Assembly: GCA_038880755.1 (NCBI GenBank)
Contig: JAVZRC010000001.1
Span: forward strand, 8,791 to 72,790
Length of the DNA stretch: 64,000 nt
Source: Candidatus Micrarchaeia archaeon
GTDB taxonomy: Archaea; Micrarchaeota; Micrarchaeia; CABMEP01
Direction: 5' to 3'
Both the position numbers and the translations under genes were made by a program. The notes under the pieces are model-generated. The model ran no database searches, was not told where the DNA came from, and saw only the letters and a program-made list of their open reading frames with translations. Positions 16,294-47,082 of the stretch are shown in pieces (position 1 is the first letter of the stretch; every line of letters starts with the position of its first letter).

Positions 16294-17169
16294 TTATACT
16301 CCAAGAGTTACTCTCAAAAGATTTCTTATTCCGGGTGCAAGACCAAATATGATTATGAGAAGATATAGAAAATATCTTTCGCTTTCATTTTCAGCCTCTC
16401 TTTCTATAATTAAAGAGGCGAAAATAGCAAAGAGCACCTTTATGAATAGATAAATTATTGTTCCATAAACAATGATTTCGCTAAAGAACCTTTCTACTAC
16501 ATGCTGGCCAAAATAACAGATTCCCTTTTCCGTGCAAAGAGGAGAAAATCTATTGAAGATCTCTATGGCCACAAAGCTTGAAACACCATCAATAGTATGT
16601 GCTGCAACTGCGATTCTTGGAAGTGTTTTATTTAATTTATATCTTTCCATTATAAGATGTGAAAAAACCATAATCATTCCTGAAAGAGCCAATATAGTTA
16701 TTAGATAAGTCGGGTCTTGAATCATACTTAATACAACAATTAAGTGAGGAAGACACAACAATATACCTATTGTAGGATAAATTTTAGGCTGTTTAAGTTT
16801 GATGCTTATATAAAGCGAAAATATCGTTATTAATCCTATAATTACATATATTCCAGGTGTGGCTGTAAGAAATCCATAGTTATATATTCCACTGTTAAGA
16901 AAGGGACCAAAAAGCCAATAGAATTGATATCCGCTCCAATCAATGCCCGCTTCTGTTGCATCTGTGATAACTCTAACAGTTGATCCCAATATTATGAATG
17001 GAATAGTATAGATAATAAGTTCTTTTGTAAAGTATTTTTTGAATTTCTTGTATACTAAAAAAGCTGCAACTATTGCAATAACTGCATAAACAAGAGTATT
17101 AATGATGTTATATCCAGTGTGTTCTATTATTGGATTAATGAAATAATCTTGGATAAAATTCTCTATCAT
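16294..17169 (-). CDS. polytopic integral membrane protein, hypothetical
   Basis: About 8 predicted hydrophobic helices across 291 aa. Confidence 0.45.
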   Translation of the reverse strand: MIENFIQDYFINPIIEHTGYNIINTLVYAVIAIVAAFLVYKKFKKYFTKELIIYTIPFIILGSTVRVITDATEAGIDWSGYQFYWLFGPFLNSGIYNYGFLTATPGIYVIIGLITIFSLYISIKLKQPKIYPTIGILLCLPHLIVVLSMIQDPTYLITILALSGMIMVFSHLIMERYKLNKTLPRIAVAAHTIDGVSSFVAIEIFNRFSPLCTEKGICYFGQHVVERFFSEIIVYGTIIYLFIKVLFAIFASLIIEREAENESERYFLYLLIIIFGLAPGIRNLLRVTLGV

Positions 17170-29094: not shown

Positions 29095-30723
29095 ATGAAG
29101 AAATCTAATAAAATAGATATAAAATTTAATTATTCATTATTCATTCTGTTTAGCTTAATTATTTTTGCTTACGCCCAAACGCAGACACAAAGCCAACAGA
29201 CATGGCAGCAGTATGTTCCTAATTGGTTTCCTTTGTTTGCAATTGCAATTGGAATAGGATTTGGAATAACTGGACTTGCATTCATGTTAGCAAGAACCTT
29301 TCAACTTACACAGATGGAAACATGGGCCAGAGCAGAATTGTTTGAGGTAACTGGAAGTGCATTCTTAGTTTTAATAATACTAATAACATTGGGAGTAATT
29401 GACAATCTATTCATTGCGGCTGTAGGAATGAAGCCAACAGATCTTTCACTTGATTTCACAAATAGGATTTCAGAAAGATTGATGGATAGGTATATTGATT
29501 CGGTTAAGCTAGGTGCAGCAGTAGGTATGCTTTCAGGTCCACCAGTCCAATATTTAGGAGCAACATCTTCCACATCAGACAAAAGCGGTCAGACAAATCA
29601 AGGAAGCGGAACTGAAGTTACAGGAGGTAATGATGGTAAACCAGTGCAGTCTCCAGAGACACCAAATAGAATCTGGATGGTAGCCATTAAATCTTTTAAA
29701 ATGAGTTACCTAACATTTTATGCTGCAGATGTTTTTAATGGTCATTTTAACTTAGTTCAATCTATAGCTTTAACTTCTTTAGGAGTTTCTATCTTTTCCC
29801 ATATCTTATTGAATTTTATAAATAGTATTGCAATTCCATTTTTAATTCCATTTGGATTGTTTTTGAGCATATTTGCATTCACAAGGAAAATGGGAAGAAC
29901 CATAATTGCGTTTGGGGTGGGGCTCTACCTTTTTGTTCCGCTTTCCATAATAATTGCTCAAACAATGTATGATTCTGCATTTAAGCCGAATTCTTCCATC
30001 CCAGCGATAAGTAGACCTTCAGGAAATTCAAATATAGATCGTTTTACAACAGAGGTTTTTGCTTATGAAGCTTTAGATCTGCTTTCGCAATTAGCAATTG
30101 CCCAATATGCAATTTTAACCAATGCAGATACCTCACTACTGCCAAGTTGTGTAACCGGAGCAATTTCCCTTTCTTCAATATGTGGGATAGCTGCTCCAGC
30201 TTGTGCTCCAGTATTTACAATGATATGTTCTATGCTTGGTGGCATGTCTGACGTGGGAAGCGGGTCAGATAATATAAATACAATACAAAACGTTTTTTCT
30301 GTTTTGAGAGTTGCTTCTTTAAGTACGATTCTTGATGTACCAATCCCTGAACAATTAGGTTCAGCAAGTGCAACTATTGTAAGTCTAGCTGTAGCAGGTG
30401 GTGCATCCACATTTATATTCCATTTAATTCCATCAAATGTGATAACTATAAATTACATTATGCCAGTTCTGCAGCAATTAATGAACTTTGGGCAGTACGA
30501 AGTATCAGTTTTGACAGCTTCTCTATATGCAAACATGAATCAATACCTAGCAATCAAGTTAACAAACATCACGCTTGCATACACTCCATATGTAATGCAA
30601 GATGCAGTTCCTGCATTGCTTATTCCATTTATAATCATATTTACAGTTATAACTGGCATAAGGTCAATTTCTCCAGCTATTGGAGGGGAAGTTCAAATAC
30701 TGGGAGTTTCGGAACTTATATGA
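29095..30723 (+). CDS. paralogue 1 of 6: polytopic membrane protein of novel family (C-terminal GGEVQILGVSELI)
   Basis: Signal peptide, TM1-(ETWARAELFE)-TM2 hairpin, conserved helix FTRKMGRTIIAFGVGLYLFVPL and conserved C-terminal tail. Confidence 0.65.
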   Translation: MKKSNKIDIKFNYSLFILFSLIIFAYAQTQTQSQQTWQQYVPNWFPLFAIAIGIGFGITGLAFMLARTFQLTQMETWARAELFEVTGSAFLVLIILITLGVIDNLFIAAVGMKPTDLSLDFTNRISERLMDRYIDSVKLGAAVGMLSGPPVQYLGATSSTSDKSGQTNQGSGTEVTGGNDGKPVQSPETPNRIWMVAIKSFKMSYLTFYAADVFNGHFNLVQSIALTSLGVSIFSHILLNFINSIAIPFLIPFGLFLSIFAFTRKMGRTIIAFGVGLYLFVPLSIIIAQTMYDSAFKPNSSIPAISRPSGNSNIDRFTTEVFAYEALDLLSQLAIAQYAILTNADTSLLPSCVTGAISLSSICGIAAPACAPVFTMICSMLGGMSDVGSGSDNINTIQNVFSVLRVASLSTILDVPIPEQLGSASATIVSLAVAGGASTFIFHLIPSNVITINYIMPVLQQLMNFGQYEVSVLTASLYANMNQYLAIKLTNITLAYTPYVMQDAVPALLIPFIIIFTVITGIRSISPAIGGEVQILGVSELI

Positions 30724-30746
30724 AATAATACAAGGAGTGTTAGACC

Positions 30747-31619
30747 ATGGGATTTAGCGATATACCGACATGTTTAAGTACATGCACATTATCATCAGAG
30801 TATTCAAACTGGCTTCCTTTAGCTGGTATGATAATATTCATAGTTCTGCTTGGAATATCTATAGGCTTTATGATATCTAGATTTCTAAATAGACGCGACT
30901 GGGAGGCAATGATAAGATTAGAATTATACCATCTGTCAGTTGCAGTTATTTGGATCGGATTAATCGCAATAGTTGCCAATATTACATGTTCATTGTCATG
31001 TTCAATAACTAAAGATGAGAGTCCATTCACATCTTCAATTAATTACCTTAACACAATTAATTCAAAATTAAGCAGTATTGTAAATTCCTTGTATGAGAAA
31101 GCAAAGAATATAAGGATAGAAACAGCATATTATGACGCATTTGCCAATTTCATGTATTCGCCAAAGGCAGGATGTGATAATGTTGCATCAGTATATGAGA
31201 ATTTTTCATTCATGTTATCTCCATTCGTGGCCAGTCTTTTGATTCAGCAGTATGCTTTAATTTTTATAAGCCAGATAGCATTTACTTATCTACTTCCTAT
31301 TGGAATAATTCTTCGCTTGATTCCAGGATTTAAAGACGCATCTTCATATGTTATTGCTATCGCATTTGCATTTTATATCATCTTGCCTTTAACCTATGTT
31401 TTCGCGCAAAAGGCAACGGAAGGAATTTCGCTATCTTTGATTGATACAGATGCAAGTGATTGTGTATCTGCTAATGAAATTCAAACTATATTAACTGATG
31501 TTGGATTGCTTTTGCCACAGGCAGTATTCTTCCCTGCTTTAAGTAGCATTATTACAATTGGAGCAGCAAGAGCGCTTGCAGAGATATTTAAGTATGATTT
31601 CATTGAACTAAGGGGATAA
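30747..31619 (+). CDS. paralogue 2 of 6: polytopic membrane protein of novel family
   Basis: TM1-(RRDWEAMIRLEL)-TM2 hairpin. Motif LPIGIILRLIPGFKDASSYVIAIAFAFYIILPL. Confidence 0.6.
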   Translation: MGFSDIPTCLSTCTLSSEYSNWLPLAGMIIFIVLLGISIGFMISRFLNRRDWEAMIRLELYHLSVAVIWIGLIAIVANITCSLSCSITKDESPFTSSINYLNTINSKLSSIVNSLYEKAKNIRIETAYYDAFANFMYSPKAGCDNVASVYENFSFMLSPFVASLLIQQYALIFISQIAFTYLLPIGIILRLIPGFKDASSYVIAIAFAFYIILPLTYVFAQKATEGISLSLIDTDASDCVSANEIQTILTDVGLLLPQAVFFPALSSIITIGAARALAEIFKYDFIELRG

Positions 31620-31620
31620 A

Positions 31621-32808
31621 TTGGTATTAGACAAAATAAATAATAAAGTTAAAGGATACACTGTAAAGATAGCTATGGTAGTGTTTGTTCTAATTTTATG
31701 TATCTCATTTTCATTTGCAGCTCAAGATGTTTTCGGTTTCCATACAGATGTTGATTGGATTCTAATTGCATATTTAGTTATACTTATTGTTGCACTACTA
31801 TTGGGAATCGCATTTATGATATCTAAAGTATTTGCAATGCATGAGTTAGAGGCATGGACAAGAGAAGAGGCAATGAATCTTATTATATCAATTGCAATTC
31901 TCGTTTTATTTACTGCATTTGTTGGTGTAGCTGAACAAATAGCAAATTCTTTATCTAAAGACGTTCTTTCTTCAAGTGTTTCTGCAAGTGCTTCAGGAAA
32001 CATAAGTTACTGGCAATACATACCAAATGAGGGCAGGTGGAAAACGATAGAAACTTCCAACCCATCCTGTGAATATCCATGTTACATATATATGGCAAGA
32101 GGCTTCCTAGGTTCTTTGTATGAAAAATATGGAGAATCTTTAAAGAGTATTGCCCAATATTATTTCGTTTCAGTGTTCTATTCCACTCAATCTATAGGGT
32201 CTGGCGTTGACTTTACCTGGGGCAAATTTAAATTTGAATTTGGAATTGGATTCCCGTTGAATGCAGGTTTAACTATATATAACAATATACTAGCAACTGT
32301 AGTAAGCGAGTATTTGAAAATAATTACAGCTATAAAAATGCAGGAAATTGCTTTAGTTTATCTTTCATCTCTTGCAGGCATGTTCTTCATACTTGGAATA
32401 ATCTCCCGTTCAGTTTGGTTTTTAAGAAAATTCGGCGGTCTGTTTGTAGCTGCAGGCATAGGTTTATATTTAATATTTCCAATGGTTTATGTTTTAAGTT
32501 GGTACACGATTGACAGATCTGCAATAATATTTGAAGTGGATCTTCCACAACCAGTATCTTCCGATGATCCACTTTCATTCTTTACTGGCGGGATTGGAGG
32601 TTTAGGAAATGTTGATTTGTTATTTACAAGATATAATGATAATGGATCTGTAATTTCAATTGGAATGTTAGATTCGTTAGGAAGATCATATATTCCAATA
32701 ATAGTAGTGCCAATCCTTGCAATTTTTACCACTCTTGGATTTATAAGGCATTTCTCACCAATGATAGGTGGAGATCCTGAAATAGCAGGTCTTACAAGAA
32801 TCATTTAA
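31621..32808 (+). CDS. paralogue 3 of 6: polytopic membrane protein of novel family (C-terminal IGGDPEIAGLTRII)
   Basis: Motif ISRSVWFLRKFGGLFVAAGIGLYLIFPMVYVL. The track start is a TTG. An ATG at 31675 gives a clean signal peptide. Confidence 0.6.
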   Translation: MVLDKINNKVKGYTVKIAMVVFVLILCISFSFAAQDVFGFHTDVDWILIAYLVILIVALLLGIAFMISKVFAMHELEAWTREEAMNLIISIAILVLFTAFVGVAEQIANSLSKDVLSSSVSASASGNISYWQYIPNEGRWKTIETSNPSCEYPCYIYMARGFLGSLYEKYGESLKSIAQYYFVSVFYSTQSIGSGVDFTWGKFKFEFGIGFPLNAGLTIYNNILATVVSEYLKIITAIKMQEIALVYLSSLAGMFFILGIISRSVWFLRKFGGLFVAAGIGLYLIFPMVYVLSWYTIDRSAIIFEVDLPQPVSSDDPLSFFTGGIGGLGNVDLLFTRYNDNGSVISIGMLDSLGRSYIPIIVVPILAIFTTLGFIRHFSPMIGGDPEIAGLTRII

Positions 32809-32822
32809 GCATATGAAAGTAA

Positions 32823-33971
32823 GTGGATATCATGATATTTAGTGTAAGTGAGTATATGAAAAATAATGAAACAAAGAAGAAAAACGCAAGTTCAATATTA
32901 GATCTATTTTCAAGAAGCTTAATCATGTTTTTCATATTAATTTCAATATCCTTTGCTGCAACAGAATGCGGTTACTTTGGAACATATCTTTACAACAATG
33001 TATGTGTTCCTGACTTATTAGTCAATTTGAGTACGATATTAATTTTAATTGGAATCATTATAGGCTCAATATTTTATGGACTGGGCATTGCATTAGAGCA
33101 TACAAGAATTAAAGAATGGTCTAAAGACTTCCTTTATCAACTACTTGGTACAGCAGTAATTCTTTCTGTTTATCTAGGTCTTGTAGCTTCTTTAAACAGT
33201 TTCGCACCTGCAATTTATAATTCAAATCTTGCATATCCTGCTGAAAGCACTGTTCGTTCACTTTCAGATACTAAATGGATAAATGTCCAGTCACATTCTG
33301 AAAAATATGTGGGCTGTCTTTTAAGTTACACTAAAGATGCAACATTGGAAATAGTAAGAGTATCCTCTTCATTGTCCTCTTTAGCGTCCATCTCTATTCA
33401 ATTAATTTCTGGTTCATTCAGCAACTTTTATCCATTATTTCCAACTGGAGGAGGTCTCACTTCTATAATGTCAGTTCTAATAGGAGCACTTGCAGCAACC
33501 ATTATCCAGCTTAAGCTTCAATTTGAAATACTAAAGCTAAATTCTGCATTGTTTAGTATTGTGCTTCCACTTGGATTGATATTGAGATCATTTCCATATA
33601 CTAGAGGGGCAGGAGCAGCGATGATAGCAATAACATTTGGATTTACAATTTTTCTGCCTATATTTTATTTGATCATAGAGGACATAGGTTATCATTTTTA
33701 CCAAAAAGATGTATGTTCAATACATCCGCCATCAATAGGATTTTTCCAGATGGTAGATATGGGAATAAAAATTGCGCAAAAGGGAGCGGTTTCAACTCTT
33801 CAAAAATATTTTGGAGTCGGGGGCGATTTTGAAAGTCTGACAACAGTTTTATTAATACAGGCTACCATTCTTCCATTTGTAGCTTATTTAGTAGTTCTTA
33901 ATATAATTAAGAGGCTTGCAGAGGTGCTAGGTGGAGAGATAGACTTCAGCACATTGGTGAGATTGATATGA
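32823..33971 (+). CDS. paralogue 4 of 6: polytopic membrane protein of novel family (C-terminal LGGEIDFSTLVRLI)
   Basis: Motif LPLGLILRSFPYTRGAGAAMIAITFGFTIFLPIFYL. The start may instead be the ATG at 32856. Confidence 0.65.
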   Translation: MDIMIFSVSEYMKNNETKKKNASSILDLFSRSLIMFFILISISFAATECGYFGTYLYNNVCVPDLLVNLSTILILIGIIIGSIFYGLGIALEHTRIKEWSKDFLYQLLGTAVILSVYLGLVASLNSFAPAIYNSNLAYPAESTVRSLSDTKWINVQSHSEKYVGCLLSYTKDATLEIVRVSSSLSSLASISIQLISGSFSNFYPLFPTGGGLTSIMSVLIGALAATIIQLKLQFEILKLNSALFSIVLPLGLILRSFPYTRGAGAAMIAITFGFTIFLPIFYLIIEDIGYHFYQKDVCSIHPPSIGFFQMVDMGIKIAQKGAVSTLQKYFGVGGDFESLTTVLLIQATILPFVAYLVVLNIIKRLAEVLGGEIDFSTLVRLI

Positions 33972-35104
33972 AAAAGGGATTCAAACATATATTGTATTTA
34001 GCTTTGCTGCTTCTCATTATTCTACTTAATCCTGTGCATGCTCAAACAAATACTAACCAAGATAATGTGCCGAATGGTTGTGAAGTTGCATTGCTTTTGG
34101 ATTTTGGAAATCAAAGCAACAGTGCTATAGGTGTAGAGCAGAATTGGAAATCTTTGTCCTTTATTGGATTATTGGTTTCTTTATTTCTGTTAATTTTTGC
34201 GTATTTAATAGGTAAATCTTTAGATTCCCCACAACTTATAGCTAGAGCTAAGACAGATATGATTCAGGTAGTTGTGACTGCAATAATGCTTGGAGTTCTT
34301 TATTCAATATTGCTCTTTATTTGTAGCATTGATGCATCTCAATTTGGATTTAATTTTACTTCATTTTTTGATGGAGCAAGAATGTATCTTGAATACTCAA
34401 GAGCATCGGCGCTTAACGCTTACCTTAAATGTACAAATGCAATGATGATCATAACTGGATTGTCTACATTCAATATAAACAATCCAAACTTTATAGATTT
34501 GGGTGCATTTCTACATATAGGGGTTTACTTTAAACCTTTTGCAGGTTATGGAATTACAATAGGCGCTCTTAACTGGTTCTCCAGTCTGGTACAACTTTCA
34601 TATTCATTAATTACGGGATATATTGTGGTTCTAGATGCAATTCAGCTGTATTTCCTTAATCTACTTCTTCCAGCAGGAGTAGTATTGAGATGTTTTTCGC
34701 CAACAAGAGATTTAGGCGGTGTGCTAATTGCAATAAGTGTAGGCTTATTCTTTTTCTATCCATTACTGTTTTCATTTTCATATATGATTATTGGTCAGCC
34801 AGATCCAAATGTAAGATTGCCAGATATGGATTGGGAAAGTGAGATAAATAGTGCTGTAGCTAAATCTGTAGCACTATCATCAGTTCCTTTAGGCAGTCTT
34901 GTAACTATCTTCAATTCATTGTTCGGCAAAGGCGGAGAAGCAATAGATAGACTGAACGAGGCATATATTGCGACAGGCAGTGTGATTTTATATGTTTTTA
35001 TATTACCTGCAATTAATTGGATTATCTTAGTAGCGATCATCAGAGAATTAAGCAAGGCATTAGGCCAGGAAGTAGATATATCTGGTTTGGCAAGAATGAT
35101 CTGA
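33968..35104 (+). CDS. paralogue 5 of 6: polytopic membrane protein of novel family (C-terminal LGQEVDISGLARMI)
   Basis: Motif LLPAGVVLRCFSPTRDLGGVLIAISVGLFFFYPL. A 4-bp ATGA overlap with paralogue 4 suggests translational coupling. Confidence 0.65.
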   Translation: MKKGFKHILYLALLLLIILLNPVHAQTNTNQDNVPNGCEVALLLDFGNQSNSAIGVEQNWKSLSFIGLLVSLFLLIFAYLIGKSLDSPQLIARAKTDMIQVVVTAIMLGVLYSILLFICSIDASQFGFNFTSFFDGARMYLEYSRASALNAYLKCTNAMMIITGLSTFNINNPNFIDLGAFLHIGVYFKPFAGYGITIGALNWFSSLVQLSYSLITGYIVVLDAIQLYFLNLLLPAGVVLRCFSPTRDLGGVLIAISVGLFFFYPLLFSFSYMIIGQPDPNVRLPDMDWESEINSAVAKSVALSSVPLGSLVTIFNSLFGKGGEAIDRLNEAYIATGSVILYVFILPAINWIILVAIIRELSKALGQEVDISGLARMI

Positions 35105-35118
35105 GATACGGTGAAATT

Positions 35119-36366
35119 ATGTTTGTAAATCCGCAAAAAAGTAAAATAAAATCAATTCACTCATTATTTCTACAGATAATACTATTTTTACTTATTTTAA
35201 ATCAGGTGAGTGCACTTTCATGCAGCATTACAGATCAAAATTGCCCAAGCGGACAGATATGTGATAAGGGAGAATGCAGGGAATGTCTCACAAGTGCAGA
35301 ATGCTGGAGCAAAACTCTAATTAGATCTACTCCAATTGGAGGAATCTCACCTTGGGTTAGCATATCTATCATAGTTTTGCTTATATCGCTTTTAGGTGTT
35401 GCAATATTTTATATGGTAGCTTATGCATTCCAATCTGATCAGTACAAGAGAATCGCATTTGCTGAATTAATGCAGGTGTTAGCTTCATTTCTGTTGGTTG
35501 CATTTCTATTTGGATTTGAAATATTTGAAACAGATATGCTTACAAGATTAGAAAATACTTCAGGAGCAATCACAGCTGCATTAGTTCTTCAATCTCAAGG
35601 TACCTCACCCACTGCTGCACTTTCTGGAGATGTACAGATCAATCCATTTGATGTTTCATATGCATTTCTTAGGAATATGATAAATTGCGTTCAAAACAAA
35701 TTAAAAACAACATATGAGAACTCAAAAGCAATACAAACAATAATTAATTTGAATATAGATGTACAAGTGATTACACCTGGAAAGGTGAAATTTTCAGTTC
35801 CAAACCCTCTTGCATTCACATCTCTATCAGAAACTGCAGCAAAGTATGAATTCCAAGCAAATGAACTTACTTGGCTTATGATATTTCTTTACGCCCAGAT
35901 AGCAGTTCTGAAATTTATAGAAACATCGATGTTCACGGTCTTTTTGCCAATAGGGTTAATACTTAGAGCATTTCCACCTACTAGAGGGGCAGGAGCTGTG
36001 CTGGTTGCGATAGCAATAGGATTTTATCTTATCTATCCTTTGACATTCACTTTATTATATACTGGAACACCTAAGCAGATAGAAGGATGCAATCTTCAAG
36101 TTGCATTTGATTACTCTCAATTGGAAAAGACATGCCCATTAAACATTGGTGCGACCACTCAGATACTTTCTTCTGCATCTGATCTTGCTGCAACATTAGA
36201 TGCAGCTGTACCTCAATTACAAGCAGGGACATCTTCTATTAGATTCACCACATTCTTGTATATGCTTATTTCATTAGGTGTCACATTTATATTTGTCCGT
36301 TCATTGTCAAGCATATTAGGTGCAGACATTTCAGAGATAGGAAGAACAATGTTAAGATTATTATAA
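35119..36366 (+). CDS. paralogue 6 of 6: polytopic membrane protein of novel family with N-terminal Cys-rich EGF-like module
   Basis: Motif LPIGLILRAFPPTRGAGAVLVAIAIGFYLIYPL. N-terminal CSITDQNCPSGQICDKGECRECLTSAEC. Start set to the ATG at 35119, because the track start overlaps paralogue 5. Confidence 0.65.
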   Translation: MFVNPQKSKIKSIHSLFLQIILFLLILNQVSALSCSITDQNCPSGQICDKGECRECLTSAECWSKTLIRSTPIGGISPWVSISIIVLLISLLGVAIFYMVAYAFQSDQYKRIAFAELMQVLASFLLVAFLFGFEIFETDMLTRLENTSGAITAALVLQSQGTSPTAALSGDVQINPFDVSYAFLRNMINCVQNKLKTTYENSKAIQTIINLNIDVQVITPGKVKFSVPNPLAFTSLSETAAKYEFQANELTWLMIFLYAQIAVLKFIETSMFTVFLPIGLILRAFPPTRGAGAVLVAIAIGFYLIYPLTFTLLYTGTPKQIEGCNLQVAFDYSQLEKTCPLNIGATTQILSSASDLAATLDAAVPQLQAGTSSIRFTTFLYMLISLGVTFIFVRSLSSILGADISEIGRTMLRLL

Positions 36367-36388
36367 ACTGCGATGTTGGAGTGATAAT

Positions 36389-37165
36389 ATGAATAAGAAA
36401 AAGAAATTCGAATCTGACGTTTCATCAGTTCAAAACAATGCTAAAAAAGATTTCATTAAGCAGTTTACTTTTTATTTTGCAATTATATTTGGACTAATGA
36501 TAATAGCCTACGTTCTTGCAATTCTTCCCTCTTTGTTGGCAAAAAATTCTCCAAAAGTTGGACAAACAGAATTGTCTGCAGAAGACTATTCTTGCAATTC
36601 AAGCGTCACAAAAGATTCCATTGAGTACAATATTAAATATCTAATTATAAAAAACGGAACGCAAATTGGAACTCTAGAATATAATTTTTCTAAAACTGAT
36701 TCTGGATTCATTAAAAAAGAAATAGGCATGATAGATTTCACAAAGTTAGAAGATTATTCTCAAGCTATTAAAAATTCAAACATTTCACTTTTATCATCTG
36801 CTATTACAATAATAGAGACTATTTATGATTCAGATTATAATTGTAAAAACTCTTCCTATATATTGATTTTAGGAAACTCAACTTATAATTATTCTGGAGA
36901 GTGCAGCCCCCCAGACATTCCTTTCAAAATATGCAAGCAAAATATGAAAGAACTATTAAATGAAAAGATAGAGGCAGGAGCGTTTACATTCAATACAATA
37001 AAATATGAATATACACACTCACAAACTATCGAAGGTCTAAAAGAAACGCAAATTTTATATCTTTGGTTTTCAGATCTTCCATTCCCAATAAAAGTAGGTG
37101 ATTCAGAGTTTTATTTGATCCTTTCAAACTATTCAAAAAACAATATCAGCCATGAAAATAAATAG
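36389..37165 (+). CDS. hypothetical single-pass membrane protein with Cys pairs, part of the surface cluster
   Basis: TM FTFYFAIIFGLMIIAYVLAILPSLL, then a soluble Cys-containing domain. Confidence 0.45.
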   Translation: MNKKKKFESDVSSVQNNAKKDFIKQFTFYFAIIFGLMIIAYVLAILPSLLAKNSPKVGQTELSAEDYSCNSSVTKDSIEYNIKYLIIKNGTQIGTLEYNFSKTDSGFIKKEIGMIDFTKLEDYSQAIKNSNISLLSSAITIIETIYDSDYNCKNSSYILILGNSTYNYSGECSPPDIPFKICKQNMKELLNEKIEAGAFTFNTIKYEYTHSQTIEGLKETQILYLWFSDLPFPIKVGDSEFYLILSNYSKNNISHENK

Positions 37166-37250: not shown

Positions 37251-40200
37251 ATGAATAAATCTGAAATGAAGAAAGAAAGTAAAATCAAGTCTTCATCTTT
37301 TTCAAATATGATGGTTTTTCTGATCATCTTTTCTTTGATATTTATTCTTGTCTCTGGTTGTATTGAATTAAAGCCAAGAGAAGGGATAAGTACTACAGTT
37401 CCAATTACGGTAACGAAAGGAAGCGATGTATGTGCCGGTTATAATGAATCCACATGCGGCGCTTTCTTGAAGGAAAAGAGAACTGCAATTTCTGATTATA
37501 TTTGTAAAGGACCAATCGGCCCTTCTTATTCAAAGGTGGACGAAGTAACTTATTCTCTTTCAGCTGAAAAAGGTTGGAGTTGTGAGGAAACAAAAACATA
37601 TCTAGTTTTAGCAGGAAATAACTATACAATGTCAGGTTCAGGCCATATGGGGAATCCACATGGTGGTAGCATAACATTACAAGATTCAAGAAATGTAGTA
37701 TCACCAATATCTTATGGAATGAATAATCTAACTTTGAAATGTGATGTAGGCGTATTTGTTAGTGTTTCAAAAGGTAAATATCAGGGGGGTTCATTTACCT
37801 TGAGATTTGATGGTTCATCTGACATCTTATCTCCAGGAGACCGTTTTGACGGACAATACTCATTTTTCGTACTACCATTAACTTTAACTCCAGAAAATAA
37901 CAAATTAATTGGTAATCTTAGTTTTTCAGGTACGTGGGTAGTTACCGGAAAAGAATACGGTAGTTGGCCAAACAAAAAACACAAATCAAGCATGGATGTT
38001 TCTTACTCTATTTCTTGTACTCCCTTTGCAAGCTACAATGTTAATTGGAGATGTAAAAATGCATATACCTCAGAATCATATGATTTTGTAAATTGCAGCT
38101 ATGATGAATTTTCTACATTCCAGGGTGGAAGGACATTCCTTGATAACAATACTCCATTCAGCAAGCTTAGCAACTATATTCAATCATATTATGGAACTTA
38201 CTCGTACAATCCAATTACTGAAGAAACAAAGCCAGCTGGAAAAATTCAAGTTCCATTCTTTATGTTAGGCCAAGGTCCATCCTTCCAGGATTATGAAGAG
38301 GCAAAGAAACTATGTGTACCATGGAAAGAAACCGTAGTGAACATCTCACTTGGAAATACGACATTTGATCCTCCATTTATGACAATCCTCTCAGGTTTAG
38401 AGCTCTGTATCGATAATAAAGACAATAAGAGACATGATATAACGATAATCAATCTTCAGGATCAAAGTATAGTAAGACAATACATTCTTCAGCCAACGCA
38501 ATCTGCATGTTATATACCATACGAAGGCTTTTATCACATAAAAGATTCAAATGGAGACTATGCTTATTTATCAGTACTAAGCGCAAAAGATACTACTCAG
38601 ATTTATATAGGAAATAACATAGTTCCGAATTATACAGTGGTTAATGCAGATGGATTTGTTAATTTTAGCCTAATTGAAAGAAAAGAGCATAACTTGAGTA
38701 TGACAAGTGTGAATAGATTTGATGATTATAGCTATGATAATAATTTTACTCTCAATCTTTCAAATCCGGTTGAAACAATAAGAGCGCCACAAACAGGAGA
38801 GTATAGGATTAATGATATCACAACAGATAAAACTGGTTATTTATTCGTTCAGTCTCCGCTTCAGAGATTCTTGTTTAAGAGAGATGGAACAATTGATCCA
38901 GGATATGAAATATACAGACCGCTTGGAGATTTGATTTGTTTTAGAAGCGAAACTGAAGGTTTAAGCATTTCAATTTCAAGATACACAGAAACTGAAAATG
39001 GATATGAATGGATATGGCTGACTAATGAAACATTGTCTACAAATTCATATTGCTGTATTCAAGGTGCGTTACCTGGCAAGTATCAAGGAATTACCTCAGA
39101 TGGAAGAGTTGCAAATTGGACGATAGGAAATGGAAAGCCTTCCGCAACAGTTTCTATTCAGCCGATTGGTTTTGAACCTGAAGAAGTAGAAAGTCCGCCA
39201 GGAACAAAGATATGTTGGATTAATCCATCAGCAATCTCAAGAAATGTTATAACAAAATCATCATCAGGAAAGACATTCTTCTCAGGCCAAATTCCACCAT
39301 TCTCAGATAATGTTTGTTGGCCAACTATGAACAAGACAGATTCATATGTAACTACATTTGTACCTAATTTAGATGTGAGGAACATTGTGAATATTAAAGA
39401 GGTTGATTCAAGAAACATCCAAATACTCTCAGGTGGCGCAGGCTTTGATACTATCTCATTAGTTGTAAAGCCTGGCTCTCAAATATGTTGGATTAATAAT
39501 GATAATAAGAATCATACATTAAAAGATGAGAGTGGAAACTACATACTCTTAGCTCCATCGCAAACAAACTGTATAGATAAGTCTACTATGCAGGAAGGAA
39601 ATATTTATACGCGCCAGCTGGATGGAAAGGAGATTTATTCAGATGTTGGAGTTATAGATGGTAAAGGTGCAATCCTGTCTTCAAGAGGTCCTATTCCATT
39701 TTCACTATTTGTAAATCCACCAAATGTTAATATGACTCAATCAGGAGAATTGTATATCACCTCTCCTTCGTATTTCAAGATTATAAATAAACAGAGTGTT
39801 CCATCTGAGTTGTATGAGATTTCCTATATTACTTTATTAGCTAATTCAACTGGATTGGCAGATATAGTGAAAACCGAAAGTGAAACTATTATAATTAATT
39901 CTCCGGTTAAGAGCTATACAAAGCTATTGCTTTATGTGGAAAATACTGATGATAAAAACCACACTATAAGAGTGGAATCAAACGGAGATGAAATCAATAT
40001 TCTACCTAATTCATTTTATTTATTTGAAATTAGTCAAAGTACAGTATTAACTGATTTAACTGTTAAAGAAAATTTGACTAGAAGTGGAACTACAAATCAA
40101 ACTATAATAGATGCATTGTCACAGATCCCAATAAAGATATTGGGTCCTCCAGAGATAAAATTAAGTAAATCAGGTTCTAATGGAGATTCATTAACATTGT

Positions 40201-43200
40201 CTGCTCCTATTGAACCTTATACTTCAATACTTTATGAAAATAATACAAACAAGACAATTGTAATCACTTTTGCAGATACAAAGGAATTCATACTAGAGAA
40301 CCCATTGAACAATCAAACATTAGACCTTCCAACTCAGGTTATTCATGGAGATTTATCCTCTCAAATTCTTTATGATATGAGAAAGTATGCGGATGAGGGA
40401 GCAATGTCATTGCTTATTCCTTCATTCCATAATGTAACAGTAAAGATACATTCCTCTGTTTTCTCTCCATCTGAAGCATTAATACCTGCAGGAAGCACAA
40501 TTACATTTACTAATAAGGATGTAATAGACCATACAATTGATTTAATTAAAAATGAAAGCGATATCATCTCTTCAAGATCGTTTACCCTTCTACCATTACA
40601 ATCAAATTCAACTTCAGATACACCAAAGAATACAACATTCACGTTCTATGATCAGCTTTCCAATATGAAAGGAAACATTACAACAGTTGCTTATGATGCA
40701 AATATTGGAATAATATCAACACCGATTTATCCAGAATCTGGAATGGTTGCAGTTGGTGGACCTGTTAAATTCAATAACTATGATCCTGATTCAGATTATA
40801 AGATTGAGATTAAACTTACAGATGAACTAAACGCTGATTACACATATATCTTAAATCTTCCTAAATATACAAATGGGATTCCAGGAGTTGCAACATGGAT
40901 TCCAGATAAGGCTGGAAATGCCACTTATATAGTTAGAAATAATACAATTGTTGTTGGCACTGGTGAAATAGTTGTCAAGAATTCAATAATTAATATTTCT
41001 ATTAGAAATGGGGAGTTTGAAACAAAATCAATTGCGGTTGATCATGATAGCAAGGTGTGCTTTAATCCAGACTCACCAAGAAACATCTCAATTACTAATT
41101 TAGATACCGGTGAAAAGATAGCTGAAAGAACTATCTATCCATTAGGTGTTCAAGCAACAGATTCAGGTAGTGTTTGTAAAAGAATTTATAACTGTTCTGT
41201 AAAGCAACAGACTGGAGATTATGGATGCATAGGAATAGTGAATGAATCAGATCCTTCTACATATTGTTCTTATTATTTAATTAATCCATCAATAGCATGT
41301 AAATTAGATAATAATATTTCATGTGTTGTTAAAGACCAGTATTCAAATGATTTAGAGTGTACAACTGACTATTCAAAAGATACGCAACCCGCAGTGCCAG
41401 GCATTCAACCACAGTGTTTATTCCAAGCAAGATTAGATGGTGGTGCATGCAACGGTGGTTCAGTAATAAAGAATTCTTCCTTAGCTTCAATAATTAATTG
41501 CTCAGTTTCAACTACAGGTCTTCTCCAGTTTAACTATTTTTCAGGTAAGGAAAAGACAGATGTATCAAATTTATTATGTAACGTCCAAAAATCAGGTAAT
41601 ATTATAACATGTAGCCCAACAGGTTTATATCCAGATATAGGTTGTATTAATAATTCAATCAATGATCTATATTGCTATTATACACCTTCACCATTAACAT
41701 CCGCAGAAAAGTCTAATCCGTATACATTAACTGATAATCGTTTCTGTGCAGTAACAACTGCTCAAAGAACTGAAAGATATTATACAACATATGCATGTGA
41801 TATAGGGTACGATGGTAAGTGTACATGTCCAACTAATAAAATGTGTGGTGCCTTGCCATGTGATGGAAGCAATGTTCTTGCAAGTATGTATTATGATCGT
41901 TATCAAAGCAGTTCTATGTTTGGAAGGAAAAGTTATAATTGTTCGAATGGAAAGTTAGTTAATGTTCTCTTGAAAGAAGGGACATATACATTTAATTTCT
42001 CAGGATTAGATAATCCATATTTTTCAATATATCTTAAACCTAATTTTGGATTTAAGGCATGCAAATGCTATGCTGCCAACCAAAGGACAGTCACATACGC
42101 TAATTCGTGTAGTGTTAAAACTGGGGGAAGTTCAATCACTCCATTTCCAAGCAATTGTACTTTACAGTCTGAGAAATGTGTGTTCTCTTCTCCATCAGTA
42201 TTTTTATGCAGCAATGAAGAAAACTGTCCATGTAAATTCGGATGCGGAAAGAAGATCAACTATTCAACACTAGGAAACATAAATTGTGTTTCAACCCCAG
42301 GGGGTTGTAATGTAATATCAAATTATAATGCTGATAATGGTGATTACTGTAAATATGCGTATGCTCAAACATGCACACCTAAACAAGGATATGAAGATAA
42401 AGTATCATGCAAACTTGATGGAATATCATGTTTGATATCAGAAGGAAAGAAAATAAAAGACGACGGTTCGTATTGCAGTTTGAATTTATTTTCATGTGAA
42501 CCAGCTTACTCGGGCGTTGATTGCAGTTTTGATGCATCAACACAATCATGTAAGGTTGGTTCTATCGAGCAATTCTGTTTCACACCAGCTTCAACTTATG
42601 TTGTTGAGGATGTAGATACTGGAAATATTATGATAGTTGAAGGTTATGACAGATATACGCCATTAGAGATAGATATTCAAAAATCTGTGTTCACTCCTTC
42701 CTTTGTTGCATCATCTCCACTGAGCGAAGTATGTTTCCAAAGCCTCGATGGAAAAATGCACAGAGTTTCAGTTCCAGAGGCAGTAAAGAGTGATGGTTTT
42801 ATTGATGTTTATTCAGATAGGCAAACATGTCTTAATTTCCCATACAATACAGAGCCATGGACTGTAAGGTTGCAGGACAAGCCAGATGTTGCAGCAGGCA
42901 TTAAATCAATAAAGCAGGATATTGAAGTAGTTGTCAAGTCACAGATGTTTGATCCTTCTGATCTGGTTCTCAGACCTAATACATCTATTACATTTATTAA
43001 TACAGATGCAGAATCACATCAACTTAACAAAGCAATACCATCTACAAATTTTGTTAAACTTATTTTACAAAATAGCATTTTAACAAGCGATTCATTCTTT
43101 TACAATATATTAAAAACAGAGTGGATAGATACAATCGAATGTAAGAATGATTCAGACTGTCCAGAAGGTTCATTCTGCGATGTAGAAAAAAGATGCCACG

Positions 43201-45626
43201 CTATTAAATTCTGCATACGAGATGATGAGTGTCCATCTCCATCAATTTGCCATAACTATAAATGTATTCTTACAAAACAGTGTCAAACTGATTTAGAATG
43301 TGGAGTTAATAGTAAATGTATTGATGATGGAACTGGAATCAAGAAATGTATTGCATTAGATATTCAATGTTCAAATTCATTCGATTGCTACTCTTCAGAT
43401 CCAAATTCGATTTGTATTAACAACAAATGCACACGTTTAGTAAATTGTACTAATTCCTCAGATTGTCCATCTGGCTTTGTCTGTTCATCTCAGTCATGCA
43501 CCATGATTGAAAGTTGTACAAATAATAGCGAGTGCCCACTGAATTCAGTATGTCATCAAGGTAAATGTGCTACGCCAATAGTCAATAATTGTAGCTTAGA
43601 CAGTGATTGCCCGATTGGAATGTACTGTACTATTGTAGATGAAACAGAAGATGGCGAAAAAATAAGGGCATGTATTTCAAGCCCATGCATTTCAAATTCG
43701 GATTGCAGCGAAGAGAGCAATACAGCATGCATGACCAACTTCATTACCGATGAAAATAATTGTACGCTTTATAATCCATCTTATGCAGAACTGTTGTGTA
43801 CAAGCGATGTAGACTGTCTTGAGGGCGGTTGTCTCAATGGAAGATGTGTTATTTCAAAGAATTGTTCACGAGATTTTGATTGTGGCGTGATAAATGGTAT
43901 TCAATCAGTATGTGAATCTTCTGTTTGTAAGATCCCAGTTAAATGTTCTGTTTTAGCAGATTGTAGATCTGGAGAAATATGTCAGGATGGATTCTGCAGA
44001 ATACTCCGTGATAAGATTTGCACTACAGATTCAGAATGTAATGCTGATGAAATTTGTCAAGAAATGAAGTGTATAAAGAAGCAGAATTGTTCTTCCACTA
44101 TCAGTTGTAATTCACTGCAAAGCGGTGCAGCATGCACAAATGCTTCTTCATCTTACCCTGCATTCTGTCAATCATCTACAAATTGTACAAGCGATGCATA
44201 CTGCGGATCGAACCAGTATTGTGATTTAGGAATCAAGCAGTGTATTACCTATCCAAAGACAACTTGTGATTCGCCACTATATGGATCAGATGTTAGTCAG
44301 GTTAATGTTTCATTCAAGCTTCCGTCATCTACCTATAAAGCATATTTGATTTATTCTTTCAATGATAATGGGAATATATTCTTAAATGGACAAACTTTAT
44401 TACCAACAACTAAATTTAGATGCCAGTATTCGACTGGGTCTGGTGTTAATTATATTGATAACTATTCTCAAACTCAGCAATGGAAGATACCTTTAGGTTT
44501 GCTTAAGTTAGGGAATGAAGAAAATAATATGTCAATTACAACATGCAGTTGTTCTGGTCAAAAAGGATTCAACATTTCAATACTTTATTATTATGTTTCT
44601 CCAGAAGGAATCAAACAAGAGTCAATTATAATAGATCCAAATTCAAAAATTCAGATCTTTTCACCTCAACAATCTGAAGAACTAATATATATTGATAACA
44701 AGACAAAGAACGTGCTTCCAATCTCTGTGAAGTCCATAATAAATTCAACAGGAGGTATAGACTGTTCAGCAGACCTCTCTTCAATGGCTCTGGCAGTTGC
44801 AAGCTATGAGAGATTAGATTATGCAACTCAGGCTTGTGACTCAGGAAAGCAGATTGAATGTGCTTCATATAATCCATATGGTCCCGCTACGGTTACATTC
44901 TTTGCCTCAGAATCTGGATTGAATCTTTCAAATGAATCTGAAAGACTGTGTGCATTCCAGCAGCTTGCATCTGTCAAGAATATATGTCCAAATTGTACAA
45001 CTGTTCTAAATGTCGGGGATGTAAATATCACACAGCTCAAGGATATTTTAAATTCAGCAAATTCAACCCAAATACTTGGCAAAAATGCAATTGAATTTGT
45101 AGATGTAATAGGTTATGACGAATTCCTTAACAATTATCCATCCTGTAGCTTCGAGGACATAATGAATTCAATAGTAAACAAATCAAAACTTGGTTTATAC
45201 AATTACACAAAACCATCAATAATAATGAGGTTTGGATTAAAGGATGGTGCATCTAATACAAATTCAGCATGCAACTGGACAGATGAATCTATTGTAACAG
45301 CATATCAAGATTTCTATGGAATATGGATTCCAATTCTTGCAGGTTCAGGCGTGCTTGGAACAGCCCAATACTGCTTGACAGACCCATGCCCGTCATTTGA
45401 TTTCTATGGTCTTCTTACCTCAGGAAAGACAAACAAGCCATGGACAGATGTATGGTTCAGGGAAGGATGCGGAAGATATTATTACGCAGCTGAAGGGTTA
45501 TCATTTACAACATTCTCAATGAAGGAAACAAACTATTCAATGTGCGATCCATCAAAGATGCTTGCCCTGCTTCAGACTGCTCAATGTGCAGTAGGCAAAT
45601 ATACATTAAAATCAGGAGCAAGTTAA
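37251..45626 (+). CDS. giant (2791 aa) cysteine-rich surface protein, putative lipoprotein, with about 15 tandem EGF-like CxxDSDCPxGxxC modules
   Basis: An uninterrupted 8.4-kb ORF. N-terminal TM ending in the lipobox-like LVSGC. Tandem Cys modules at nt 43138-44270 (e.g. ECKNDSDCPEGSFCDVEKRC). No C-terminal TM. Confidence 0.7.
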   Translation: MNKSEMKKESKIKSSSFSNMMVFLIIFSLIFILVSGCIELKPREGISTTVPITVTKGSDVCAGYNESTCGAFLKEKRTAISDYICKGPIGPSYSKVDEVTYSLSAEKGWSCEETKTYLVLAGNNYTMSGSGHMGNPHGGSITLQDSRNVVSPISYGMNNLTLKCDVGVFVSVSKGKYQGGSFTLRFDGSSDILSPGDRFDGQYSFFVLPLTLTPENNKLIGNLSFSGTWVVTGKEYGSWPNKKHKSSMDVSYSISCTPFASYNVNWRCKNAYTSESYDFVNCSYDEFSTFQGGRTFLDNNTPFSKLSNYIQSYYGTYSYNPITEETKPAGKIQVPFFMLGQGPSFQDYEEAKKLCVPWKETVVNISLGNTTFDPPFMTILSGLELCIDNKDNKRHDITIINLQDQSIVRQYILQPTQSACYIPYEGFYHIKDSNGDYAYLSVLSAKDTTQIYIGNNIVPNYTVVNADGFVNFSLIERKEHNLSMTSVNRFDDYSYDNNFTLNLSNPVETIRAPQTGEYRINDITTDKTGYLFVQSPLQRFLFKRDGTIDPGYEIYRPLGDLICFRSETEGLSISISRYTETENGYEWIWLTNETLSTNSYCCIQGALPGKYQGITSDGRVANWTIGNGKPSATVSIQPIGFEPEEVESPPGTKICWINPSAISRNVITKSSSGKTFFSGQIPPFSDNVCWPTMNKTDSYVTTFVPNLDVRNIVNIKEVDSRNIQILSGGAGFDTISLVVKPGSQICWINNDNKNHTLKDESGNYILLAPSQTNCIDKSTMQEGNIYTRQLDGKEIYSDVGVIDGKGAILSSRGPIPFSLFVNPPNVNMTQSGELYITSPSYFKIINKQSVPSELYEISYITLLANSTGLADIVKTESETIIINSPVKSYTKLLLYVENTDDKNHTIRVESNGDEINILPNSFYLFEISQSTVLTDLTVKENLTRSGTTNQTIIDALSQIPIKILGPPEIKLSKSGSNGDSLTLSAPIEPYTSILYENNTNKTIVITFADTKEFILENPLNNQTLDLPTQVIHGDLSSQILYDMRKYADEGAMSLLIPSFHNVTVKIHSSVFSPSEALIPAGSTITFTNKDVIDHTIDLIKNESDIISSRSFTLLPLQSNSTSDTPKNTTFTFYDQLSNMKGNITTVAYDANIGIISTPIYPESGMVAVGGPVKFNNYDPDSDYKIEIKLTDELNADYTYILNLPKYTNGIPGVATWIPDKAGNATYIVRNNTIVVGTGEIVVKNSIINISIRNGEFETKSIAVDHDSKVCFNPDSPRNISITNLDTGEKIAERTIYPLGVQATDSGSVCKRIYNCSVKQQTGDYGCIGIVNESDPSTYCSYYLINPSIACKLDNNISCVVKDQYSNDLECTTDYSKDTQPAVPGIQPQCLFQARLDGGACNGGSVIKNSSLASIINCSVSTTGLLQFNYFSGKEKTDVSNLLCNVQKSGNIITCSPTGLYPDIGCINNSINDLYCYYTPSPLTSAEKSNPYTLTDNRFCAVTTAQRTERYYTTYACDIGYDGKCTCPTNKMCGALPCDGSNVLASMYYDRYQSSSMFGRKSYNCSNGKLVNVLLKEGTYTFNFSGLDNPYFSIYLKPNFGFKACKCYAANQRTVTYANSCSVKTGGSSITPFPSNCTLQSEKCVFSSPSVFLCSNEENCPCKFGCGKKINYSTLGNINCVSTPGGCNVISNYNADNGDYCKYAYAQTCTPKQGYEDKVSCKLDGISCLISEGKKIKDDGSYCSLNLFSCEPAYSGVDCSFDASTQSCKVGSIEQFCFTPASTYVVEDVDTGNIMIVEGYDRYTPLEIDIQKSVFTPSFVASSPLSEVCFQSLDGKMHRVSVPEAVKSDGFIDVYSDRQTCLNFPYNTEPWTVRLQDKPDVAAGIKSIKQDIEVVVKSQMFDPSDLVLRPNTSITFINTDAESHQLNKAIPSTNFVKLILQNSILTSDSFFYNILKTEWIDTIECKNDSDCPEGSFCDVEKRCHAIKFCIRDDECPSPSICHNYKCILTKQCQTDLECGVNSKCIDDGTGIKKCIALDIQCSNSFDCYSSDPNSICINNKCTRLVNCTNSSDCPSGFVCSSQSCTMIESCTNNSECPLNSVCHQGKCATPIVNNCSLDSDCPIGMYCTIVDETEDGEKIRACISSPCISNSDCSEESNTACMTNFITDENNCTLYNPSYAELLCTSDVDCLEGGCLNGRCVISKNCSRDFDCGVINGIQSVCESSVCKIPVKCSVLADCRSGEICQDGFCRILRDKICTTDSECNADEICQEMKCIKKQNCSSTISCNSLQSGAACTNASSSYPAFCQSSTNCTSDAYCGSNQYCDLGIKQCITYPKTTCDSPLYGSDVSQVNVSFKLPSSTYKAYLIYSFNDNGNIFLNGQTLLPTTKFRCQYSTGSGVNYIDNYSQTQQWKIPLGLLKLGNEENNMSITTCSCSGQKGFNISILYYYVSPEGIKQESIIIDPNSKIQIFSPQQSEELIYIDNKTKNVLPISVKSIINSTGGIDCSADLSSMALAVASYERLDYATQACDSGKQIECASYNPYGPATVTFFASESGLNLSNESERLCAFQQLASVKNICPNCTTVLNVGDVNITQLKDILNSANSTQILGKNAIEFVDVIGYDEFLNNYPSCSFEDIMNSIVNKSKLGLYNYTKPSIIMRFGLKDGASNTNSACNWTDESIVTAYQDFYGIWIPILAGSGVLGTAQYCLTDPCPSFDFYGLLTSGKTNKPWTDVWFREGCGRYYYAAEGLSFTTFSMKETNYSMCDPSKMLALLQTAQCAVGKYTLKSGAS

Positions 45627-47053: not shown

Positions 47054-47082
47054 TCAATCATCATTGTTTTTTTCAATAGAAT

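Follow-up and report, generated by a model that had tools for sequence, protein, structure and literature searches.

The giant gene, its lipid anchor and its gene cluster

The stretch of DNA analyzed here (64,000 nucleotides, referred to as the window) comes from a Candidatus Micrarchaeia archaeon (assembly GCA_038880755.1, contig JAVZRC010000001.1, positions 8,791 to 72,790), and it contains the gene of a very large cysteine-rich protein, hereafter called the giant. As the original prediction had stated, the gene is one open reading frame (ORF) of 8.4 kb. It is intact, starts with ATG and occupies positions 37251..45626 of the plus strand. The encoded protein of 2791 aa has a mass of about 300 kDa and contains 11.3% Ser, 7.7% Thr, 7.6% Asn and 4.9% Cys. 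The ORF makes up about 13% of the window, and the giant and the cluster of six membrane paralogues together make up about a quarter.

The orthologues P0001-P0005 originate from assemblies of four sources (NCBI, Logan, ENA and JGI). P0001, P0002 and P0003 (2764-2817 aa) were 92, 75, and 47% identical to the giant, respectively, with a query coverage of 99-100%. P0004 (2807 aa) was about 50% identical, and both its N-terminal signal and its C-terminus aligned, while P0005 (2529 aa) covered 89% of the giant and was without the N-terminus. Moreover, an ORF of exactly 2791 aa was present in two close metagenome-assembled genomes (MAGs). The giant is not an assembly artefact, because it is colinear with full-length orthologues of 47-92% identity from independent assemblies; the chimerism that had been named as a possible refutation is thereby removed.

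The best homologue (92%, full length) carries the label 'Candidatus Micrarchaeia archaeon'. Nine related loci were found among 185,579 species-representative genomes, all of them in Micrarchaeota/Micrarchaeia MAGs except two labeled 'uncultured archaeon'. Several of the nine bear DRTY or JZ isolate names, which we take to refer to hot-spring sites. The gene content of the window is archaeal, with a class I LysRS, Pus10, aIF2-gamma, Orc1/Cdc6, a 5S rRNA and an intron-containing tRNA. The predicted symbiont type of the organism was borne out, Micrarchaeota belonging to the DPANN archaea. The search of the whole giant against Pfam, NCBIfam and PDB sequences gave nothing beyond weak cupredoxin matches. 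Judged by its sequence, the giant is a member of an uncharacterised family of putative giant cell-surface lipoproteins, whose taxon-labeled relatives are all Micrarchaeota or other DPANN.

The only hydrophobic segment of the giant is aa 20-36, which is preceded by the Lys-rich n-region and ends at V-S-G-C37. The N-terminus (MNKSEMKKESKIK... / MMVFLIIFSLIFIL / V-S-G-C37) thus agrees with the lipobox pattern [LVI][ASTVI][GAS]C following a charged n-region and a hydrophobic core. Among the listed relatives of the C-terminal domain that are full length, most also have a lipobox-like x-[GAS]-C after a hydrophobic N-terminus, giants and 700-1000-aa proteins alike. Because such N-termini recur among these relatives, the lipobox of the giant is not a chance match. 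Furthermore, lipidation machinery of the AliA/AliB type is encoded within the window itself, by a PF01889 gene outside the cluster of the giant (Table 1). This family includes AliA and AliB, which are required for lipoprotein lipidation in Haloferax volcanii, and lipoproteins are predicted to be prevalent in DPANN (PMC12462473). The PF01889 gene adjoins genes of a D-aminoacyl-tRNA deacylase and a weakly Peptidase_A24-like protein, and this neighborhood recurs in contig L002.

The number of N-x-S/T sequons in the giant was 71, compared to 38.3 ± 5.5 in 2000 shuffled sequences (maximum 59), representing an approximately 1.9-fold excess (z about 6). The two earlier proposals, a giant cysteine-rich putative lipoprotein and glycosylation suggested by sequons, therefore both gained ground. 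From these sequence features we infer the lipidation of Cys37 and the glycosylation of the giant, which is probably a lipid-anchored, glycosylated surface protein.

Table 1. Positions in the window of the parts of the giant (aa numbering of the 2791-aa protein) and of associated genes.
Feature	Position (nt)	Strand	Basis
Signal peptide and lipobox, aa 1-37	37251..37361	+	Lys-rich n-region, hydrophobic core aa 20-33, V-S-G-C37
Conserved post-lipobox region, aa 38-100, 'IELKPREGISTTVP...CAGYNESTCGAFLKEKR'	37362..37550	+	60-76% identity in distant orthologues
N-terminal variable region, aa 101-254	37551..38012	+	Ortholog identity
N-terminal core segment, aa 290-358, '...IQVPFFMLGQGPSFQDYEEAKKLC'	38118..38324	+	Homologous to the pre-TIM segment of the small lipoproteins
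Cupredoxin-like beta-sandwich array	38313..41180	+	Starts at about aa 355, 633, 716, 897, 1056, 1242; marginal 984
Central Cys-rich region, aa 1311-1797	41181..42641	+	41 Cys, 29 invariant
Two more cupredoxin-like domains, aa 1798-1876 and 1883-1957	42642..43121	+	Pfam Cupredoxin_1 aa 1888-1925; repeat profile
14 tandem four-Cys modules, putative disulfide-rich rod or stalk, aa 1964-2331	43140..44243	+	Cys spacing, DUF7107
Predicted beta-sandwich, aa 2335-2465, 'SFNDNGxIxLNG'	44253..44645	+	AF2 model md7d58af9e72b residues 1-130, all-beta
Predicted TIM-barrel-like alpha/beta domain, aa ~2540-2750	44868..45500	+	Resembles clan GH-A glycosidases
Extremely conserved tail, aa 2751-2791 and stop	45501..45626	+	93-95% identity in 47-50%-identical orthologues
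Co-oriented cluster upstream of the giant	29095..37165	+	Seven tightly packed ORFs: six membrane paralogues and one 258-aa single-pass protein
Six tandem polytopic membrane paralogues	29095-36366	+	542, 290, 395, 382, 378, 449 aa; paralogy by phmmer
AliA/AliB-family (PF01889/DUF63) membrane protein	16294..17169	-	Pfam 153 bits, full-length match

The giant is the last gene of a conserved co-oriented cluster. The membrane paralogues upstream of it share the core motif 'LLPxGLILRxFPxTRxAG..IAI..GFYLI.PL.Y', and most of them end in the motif '..GGE.xI.GL.R.I'. One copy of the Cys module of the giant was found in the 449-aa paralogue. Similarly sized genes in matching order precede P0004, which is only about half identical to the giant, and in part P0006 too. 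The paralogue family comprised 47 homologues, all hypothetical and none with a Pfam domain, and the named ones were all from Micrarchaeia/Micrarchaeota or 'uncultured archaeon'. A profile of the six paralogues had no match among PDB sequences, and the searches of the neighbor genes (Pfam at E <= 5; NCBIfam for four of the eight) gave nothing informative. A VirB6/TrbL-like nature of the paralogues, and with it a type IV secretion-like cluster, was considered and dropped, because no hidden Markov model (HMM) matched, the cluster has no ATPase gene and there was no homologue with a name.

Divergent from the cluster lies a 1038-aa ORF (25930-29046, minus strand) without a family match. By eye, it shows an N-terminal and a second hydrophobic segment flanking a short extracellular-looking part, followed by a very long Lys/Glu-rich apparent coiled coil. 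A 1120-aa minus-strand gene occupies the equivalent position upstream of the P0004 cluster (contig L001).

Domain architecture of the giant and its wider family

The region after the lipobox was recognized by its profile (aa 38-100) in the other family giants P0006, P0007, P0013, and P0157. It is followed by a variable region. Over aa 101-254, identity fell to 22-26% for P0002 (75% over the full protein) and to 6-32% for P0003 and P0004, compared to 90-92% among the closest strains. Sequence comparison thus indicates that this region is essentially replaced in P0002 and conserved among close strains.

An internal repeat profile detected eight convincing cupredoxin-like copies in the whole giant, as well as the marginal one at aa 984. 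Between the two groups of copies lies a second Cys-dense region (aa ~1310-1800, 41 Cys), which went beyond the original prediction and was the most divergent part of the giant among distant orthologues. It contains a variable hotspot, the aa 1501-1600 bin, in which identity was just 67-70% among MAGs of 90-92% overall identity. In the residue comparison with P0001, the substitutions clustered at about aa 1547-1600 (nt 41889-42050).

The tandem Cys modules lay where they had been predicted (nt 43140-44243 compared to 43138-44270), while their number was 14 rather than about 15, and each of them contained four Cys and not six. The spacing was C-x5-C-x4-9-C-x4-14-C plus a linker of 4-11 residues, giving 22-37 aa per module. 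Self-BLASTP of the giant revealed no internal repeats, because the repeats are too short and divergent for this method, and they were mapped by regular expressions and profile methods instead. When aa 1963-2339 were searched alone, DUF7107 (PF23416) matched six stretches with 57.0 bits and an E-value of 2.4e-15 (gathering threshold 24.6); with the whole 2791-aa query its score fell to 20 bits. TIGR04201, the Myxococcales Cys-rich repeat, reached 22.9 bits (E 6.5e-5, five stretches), below its cut-off of 25 and so a resemblance only. Dickkopf_N (24.4 bits, cut-off 25) and Dumpy DPY (16.4 bits, cut-off 27) stayed below threshold as well. These four families and the giant have in common short tandem disulfide-rich modules with a 'C-x3-D-x-C-P-x-G-x2-C-x4-C' flavor. 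DUF7107 has no known function, and one copy of its model corresponds to about two modules of the giant. In the literature, neither DUF7107 nor the family of the giant was found described.

The array was conserved in its Cys pattern more than in its sequence. Of its 56 Cys, 54 never varied among six orthologues, although their identity over the array is only 30-48%, and the module count was 14 in all six, so that the proposed hypervariability of copy number was not observed. The two lost residues, C2183 and C2194, are Cys1 and Cys3 of module 9, and they were replaced together in three distant orthologues, as expected from a 1-3 / 2-4 disulfide pattern. The connectivity within a module is therefore probably 1-3 and 2-4. 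The array was restricted to one subclade of the family, formed by P0001-P0005 and P0012. Separately, a 466-aa Cys-rich ORF at 1775-3175 of the plus strand contains at least five 'CPAGQICxxGxC'-type motifs resembling the modules of the giant, and its sole Pfam match was the sub-threshold N-terminal FIMAC domain of complement factor I.

The C-terminal module comprises a predicted beta-sandwich, a predicted triosephosphate isomerase (TIM)-barrel-like domain and the conserved tail. It was modeled with AlphaFold2 (AF2) from a 24-sequence alignment, with a mean predicted local distance difference test (pLDDT) score of 74. In the beta-sandwich, pLDDT was mostly about 78-87, with 64 and 57 in the blocks of residues 51-70. 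The alpha/beta domain (model residues ~215-410), with five parallel strands, had values mostly of at least 90, and for the tail the confidence was low. Over the last ~150 residues of the giant, identity stayed at 86-95% even for orthologues whose overall identity is 47-50%. The best Foldseek matches were beta-glucuronidases of glycoside hydrolase (GH) family 2 (E 4e-10), and the alignments spanned the sandwich and the barrel, the sandwich taking the place of the N-terminal sugar-binding domain of GH2, although TM-scores were only about 0.28. By this model, the module has a predicted clan GH-A/GH2 glycosidase-like fold. For aa 2340-2791, no Pfam or NCBIfam match was obtained even at E <= 10, and no PDB sequence matched.

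A profile of aa 2335-2791 was run against 1.84 billion representative proteins and returned 143 relatives. In some of them, giants of 1200-3700 aa, the domain is C-terminal; many others are proteins of 700-1000 aa, here called the small family, in which it lies at about residues 200-400. A scan of eight small-family proteins gave Peptidase_M23 in one and SLT in another above threshold, and a sub-threshold SLT in one. The protein with the M23 domain is from 'Ca. Gugararchaeum adminiculabundum'.

In GH-A enzymes, the acid/base residue follows strand beta4, and 'LLEFG' is a classical nucleophile motif. The confident strands of the AF2 model can be read as beta4-beta8. With this reading, Glu2554 ('FFASE'; 'ITTE' in the small family), which is at least 90% conserved and is model residue 220, after strand 216-218, would be at the putative end of beta4, where the acid/base sits; this assignment follows the DSSP order and not a structural superposition. 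At the putative beta7 end, where a GH-A enzyme carries its nucleophile Glu, the giant and its close orthologues have Arg2660 ('IIMRFG'). Other relatives have E (P0013 and P0015, 'LLEFG'), D (P0006, P0007, P0010, and P0012), K, G, S or Y at this position. Some relatives read 'ILDFG', and in the small family the residue is Tyr. Because Arg2660 replaces the Glu or Asp of some relatives, binding of a lectin-like type would be likelier than classical retaining hydrolysis. Lectin-like binding is the more economical reading of the model, and classical retaining catalysis by the giant appears doubtful.

The identity of the giant to clan GH-A/GH2 enzymes (GH10 xylanase 8b73, GH5 mannosidase 4lyp, and the GH2 beta-glucuronidases 8geq and 6ncw) was 6-14%. 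In contrast to these enzymes, the giant has an Arg at the nucleophile-type position, is matched by no GH HMM and is confidently modeled for beta4-beta8 alone. Moreover, the putative first beta-alpha unit of the giant lies about 2100 residues upstream, and the protein is putatively lipid-anchored and about 5-10 times larger.

The second conserved part of the family is the N-terminal segment of the giants at aa ~290-358 ('...VPFFMLGQGPSFQDYEEAKKLC'); in the small lipoproteins, its homologue immediately precedes the TIM-like domain. A profile of aa 255-420 matched 57 family proteins, in about 43 small ones at about residues 90-160. In the joint alignment A3 of giants and small family, F, M, G, G, A and C were invariant in this segment. 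The shared core thus consists of the 'FMxGQGPxF..A..C' segment and the TIM-like domain, which are contiguous in the 700-1000-aa lipobox proteins. The consensus of the small family reads like eight beta-alpha units. Given this and the homology of the core, the giants may share the scaffold of the small family, enlarged behind its first beta-alpha unit by an insertion of about 2100 residues. A chimera of the N-terminal core and the C-terminal region was predicted with low confidence for the N-part.

The insert differs by lineage, with cupredoxin-like domains and Cys modules in the giant and BNR/NHL propellers in P0006. The latter protein (4559 aa, L002 3128-16807) keeps the N- and C-terminal conserved parts and has BNR/PSII_BNR and NHL beta-propeller repeats in the middle. 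The insert therefore appears to be modular across the family, because propellers stand there in place of the Cys modules. The family of the giant is an uncharacterised one that combines familiar types of parts in an uncommon way.

The two small-family members whose contigs were covered, P0043 (with the M23 domain) and P0152 (a cluster-mate of the SLT-bearing P0035), both sit directly downstream of proteins of 1512 and 2306 aa. These very large upstream neighbors (L012 5399-9937 and L013 2821-9741) are without a Pfam match, and no informative machinery was seen around the two small-family members on these contigs. These positions hint that giant proteins may be paired recurrently with the small lipoprotein family.

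Proposed function, alternatives and known systems

We propose that the giant is a glycan-directed envelope or host-contact lipoprotein with a spacer, a GH-like end module and a membrane platform, and we give this reading a probability of about 0.55. After export, the lipid-modified Cys37 would tether the giant to the outside of the membrane. A long, stiff, glycosylated spacer would be built from the array of beta-sandwiches and the disulfide-bonded modules, and the GH-like end module would bind an envelope glycan, either that of the host or that of the cell's own surface layer (S-layer) or glycocalyx. The two variable parts, the central patch and the N-terminal region, may tune the specificity or evade recognition, and the six membrane paralogues may supply a membrane platform that works with the giant. 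A role as a candidate adhesin or host-recognition protein, which had been suggested before, remains plausible from the sequence and fits the GH-like end domain, the hotspot of variation and the place of the gene in an operon with membrane proteins.

Several points weigh against this proposal. Not one glycosidase family has a sequence model that matches the giant. The GH assignment comes from one AF2 model of 24 sequences with a mean pLDDT of 74, in which just five barrel strands were modeled confidently, and the catalytic positions were placed from sequence and secondary structure, not from superposition. Since family members differ at the nucleophile-type position, the ligand, and even the binding of carbohydrate, are unproven. 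Host and self cannot be distinguished as the target of the giant on the present data, and for the membrane paralogues the proposed role is deduced solely from the order of the genes.

If the module were an active enzyme, the giant would be a tethered surface glycosidase that cuts glycans of the host or the environment (S-layer or extracellular polymeric substances), feeding a symbiont unable to synthesize sugars itself or opening the host envelope. The fold matches to clan GH-A/GH2 enzymes, the near-invariant Glu after the putative strand beta4, the canonical 'LLEFG' or 'ILDFG' at beta7 of some relatives and the fusion of small-family relatives to SLT or M23 wall hydrolases are all consistent with it. 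However, Arg is found at beta7 in the giant and its close orthologues, and Tyr, Lys, Gly or Ser elsewhere, and no GH family HMM matches, which makes such an activity unlikely in our view. A structural part of the Micrarchaeon's own envelope, serving as a spacer or anchor between membrane and S-layer on the six paralogues without any host recognition, would account for the 93-95% identity of the C-terminal tail, the fixed length and module number, the conserved cluster with membrane proteins and the N-terminal lipid anchor, and an S-layer is known in Micrarchaeota (bioRxiv 10.1101/2021.04.28.441871). It would explain less well the variable aa 101-254, the aa 1501-1600 hotspot and the lineage-specific inserts (the propellers of P0006 and the Cys modules of one subclade), all of which are more typical of proteins facing a changing partner. 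The giant is also Cys-rich, unlike the described S-layer protein, and has no S-layer model match; a purely structural role is thus another of the less likely explanations.

Two other readings are hardly credible. The name 'plastocyanin', given by JGI to two homologues, would make the giant a copper or electron-transfer protein, and the Pfam models Copper-bind (PF00127, 30.4 bits, gathering threshold 21.2) and Cupredoxin_1 (PF13473, 28.6 bits, gathering threshold 27) were indeed just over their thresholds. Both matches are partial, being confined to the N-terminal portion of the fold (positions 5-45 of the 99 in the profile), and the amicyanin/plastocyanin equivalog models scored 19-21 bits against cut-offs of 88-110. 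Moreover, the type-1 copper motif C-x(1-4)-H-x(2-6)-[ML] occurs nowhere in the giant, which has 18 His in total. The name is therefore misleading, and the copper-protein reading is effectively refuted. A horizontally acquired, eukaryote-like adhesin with epidermal growth factor (EGF) repeats, or an assembly chimera, could draw on the superficial look of the Cys repeats and the sub-threshold Dickkopf_N and Dumpy DPY matches. EGF domains have six Cys per 30-40 aa with disulfides 1-3, 2-4, and 5-6, while the modules of the giant have four. No EGF model matched the whole giant in Pfam at E <= 1 or the repeat region at E <= 10, and no tumor necrosis factor receptor or ephrin model matched the array, so that the EGF-like, eukaryote-like nature first assigned to the repeats gave way to the DUF7107 match. 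The G+C content was 0.32-0.36 along the gene, compared to about 0.28-0.39 along the window (about 0.33 in general). Together with the Cys count, the restriction of taxon-labeled homologues to Micrarchaeota or other DPANN and the colinearity in independent assemblies effectively refute both versions.

Returning to the glycan-directed contact lipoprotein, its most speculative element is the insertion. If the giant is a small-family scaffold with an insert of about 2100 residues, both ends would come together close to the membrane, with the insert looping outward. In an extended form of this idea, which we consider improbable, the two parts of a split glycosidase-like barrel (the first beta-alpha unit at aa ~330-358 and the rest at aa ~2480-2750) would flank a glycosylated, disulfide-stiffened hairpin insert with a variable tip, and the giant and the six paralogues would make up a so far undescribed Micrarchaeota envelope apparatus for host contact, and possibly for exchange of material, that is TraA/TraB-like in function. 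A gap of 11-16 nm was measured between the S-layer of a Micrarchaeon and that of its host (PMC11329633). By a rough estimate of our own, made from typical domain dimensions and not computed, the extended giant would be several times longer than this gap.

The closest functional analogue known to us is TraA of Myxococcus xanthus, a polymorphic surface receptor for outer-membrane exchange upon cell-cell contact (PMC3325183), and it is offered as an analogy only. Likeness to the giant is seen in the design of TraA, with an anchor (lipid or sorting tag), a proposed lectin-like domain, a polymorphic region and a Cys-repeat stalk as the proposed rigid spacer (PMC3325183). In cell-cell contact TraA works with a partner envelope protein. 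Unlike TraA, the giant has no PA14 match and neither a MYXO-CTERM tag nor a C-terminal hydrophobic tag, and its anchor is N-terminal. The TraA model NF033759 scored 16 bits against a cut-off of 750, with the similarity confined to the Cys repeats, and the giant is not a TraA family member.

Giant proteins also occur in DPANN, where those of nanohaloarchaea go by the name SPEARE. As described for nanohaloarchaea (PMC10266531), such proteins are, like the present giant, multidomain, several thousand residues long and secreted or anchored, they belong to genome-reduced ectosymbionts, and a role in host contact is proposed for them. No sequence relationship to the nanohaloarchaeal proteins was found, the domain content is different, and the family of the giant was seen in Micrarchaeota-type genomes only. 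The Micrarchaeota S-layer protein SLP_Mh is about 100 kDa, has nearly no sulfur-containing residues and contains TIGR01564/TIGR01567 domains (bioRxiv 10.1101/2021.04.28.441871). Like the probably glycosylated giant, it is a glycosylated envelope protein of this phylum and has a signal or anchor at its N-terminus, and a weak copper-binding-like domain is predicted in it. The giant differs in its mass of about 300 kDa and its Cys content, and the NCBIfam models TIGR01564 and TIGR01567 did not match it. An identity as S-layer protein was rejected on the missing model match and the 4.9% Cys.

DPANN archaea such as Micrarchaeota need physical contact with a host, and we know of essentially no molecules that make it. 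The giant has traits expected of such a contact molecule, namely a probable lipid anchor, the potential for heavy glycosylation, a long and possibly stiff spacer, a glycan-enzyme-like end module and a strain-variable patch. Furthermore, a wider unannotated family of lipobox proteins is defined here, with some fusions to wall hydrolases and, where labeled or in context, from DPANN or other archaea. These proteins offer targets for study in co-cultures of Micrarchaeota that already exist. Should the function prove merely structural, the annotation will still be useful for a family now called 'hypothetical' or, wrongly, 'plastocyanin'.

Other genes of the window

An isolated 5S rRNA gene was located at 47094-47209 of the minus strand, and no other rRNA was detected in the window. 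It lies between a convergent unknown 460-aa ORF (45671-47053) and the gene of Orc1/Cdc6 (48398-49471). The ORF 47020-47475, which overlaps the 5S rRNA, is probably not a gene. A complete protein of the RelA/SpoT type, with HD_4, RelA_SpoT, TGS, and ACT domains, is encoded at 54272-56230 of the minus strand; this (p)ppGpp enzyme architecture is typically bacterial and is unusual in archaea.

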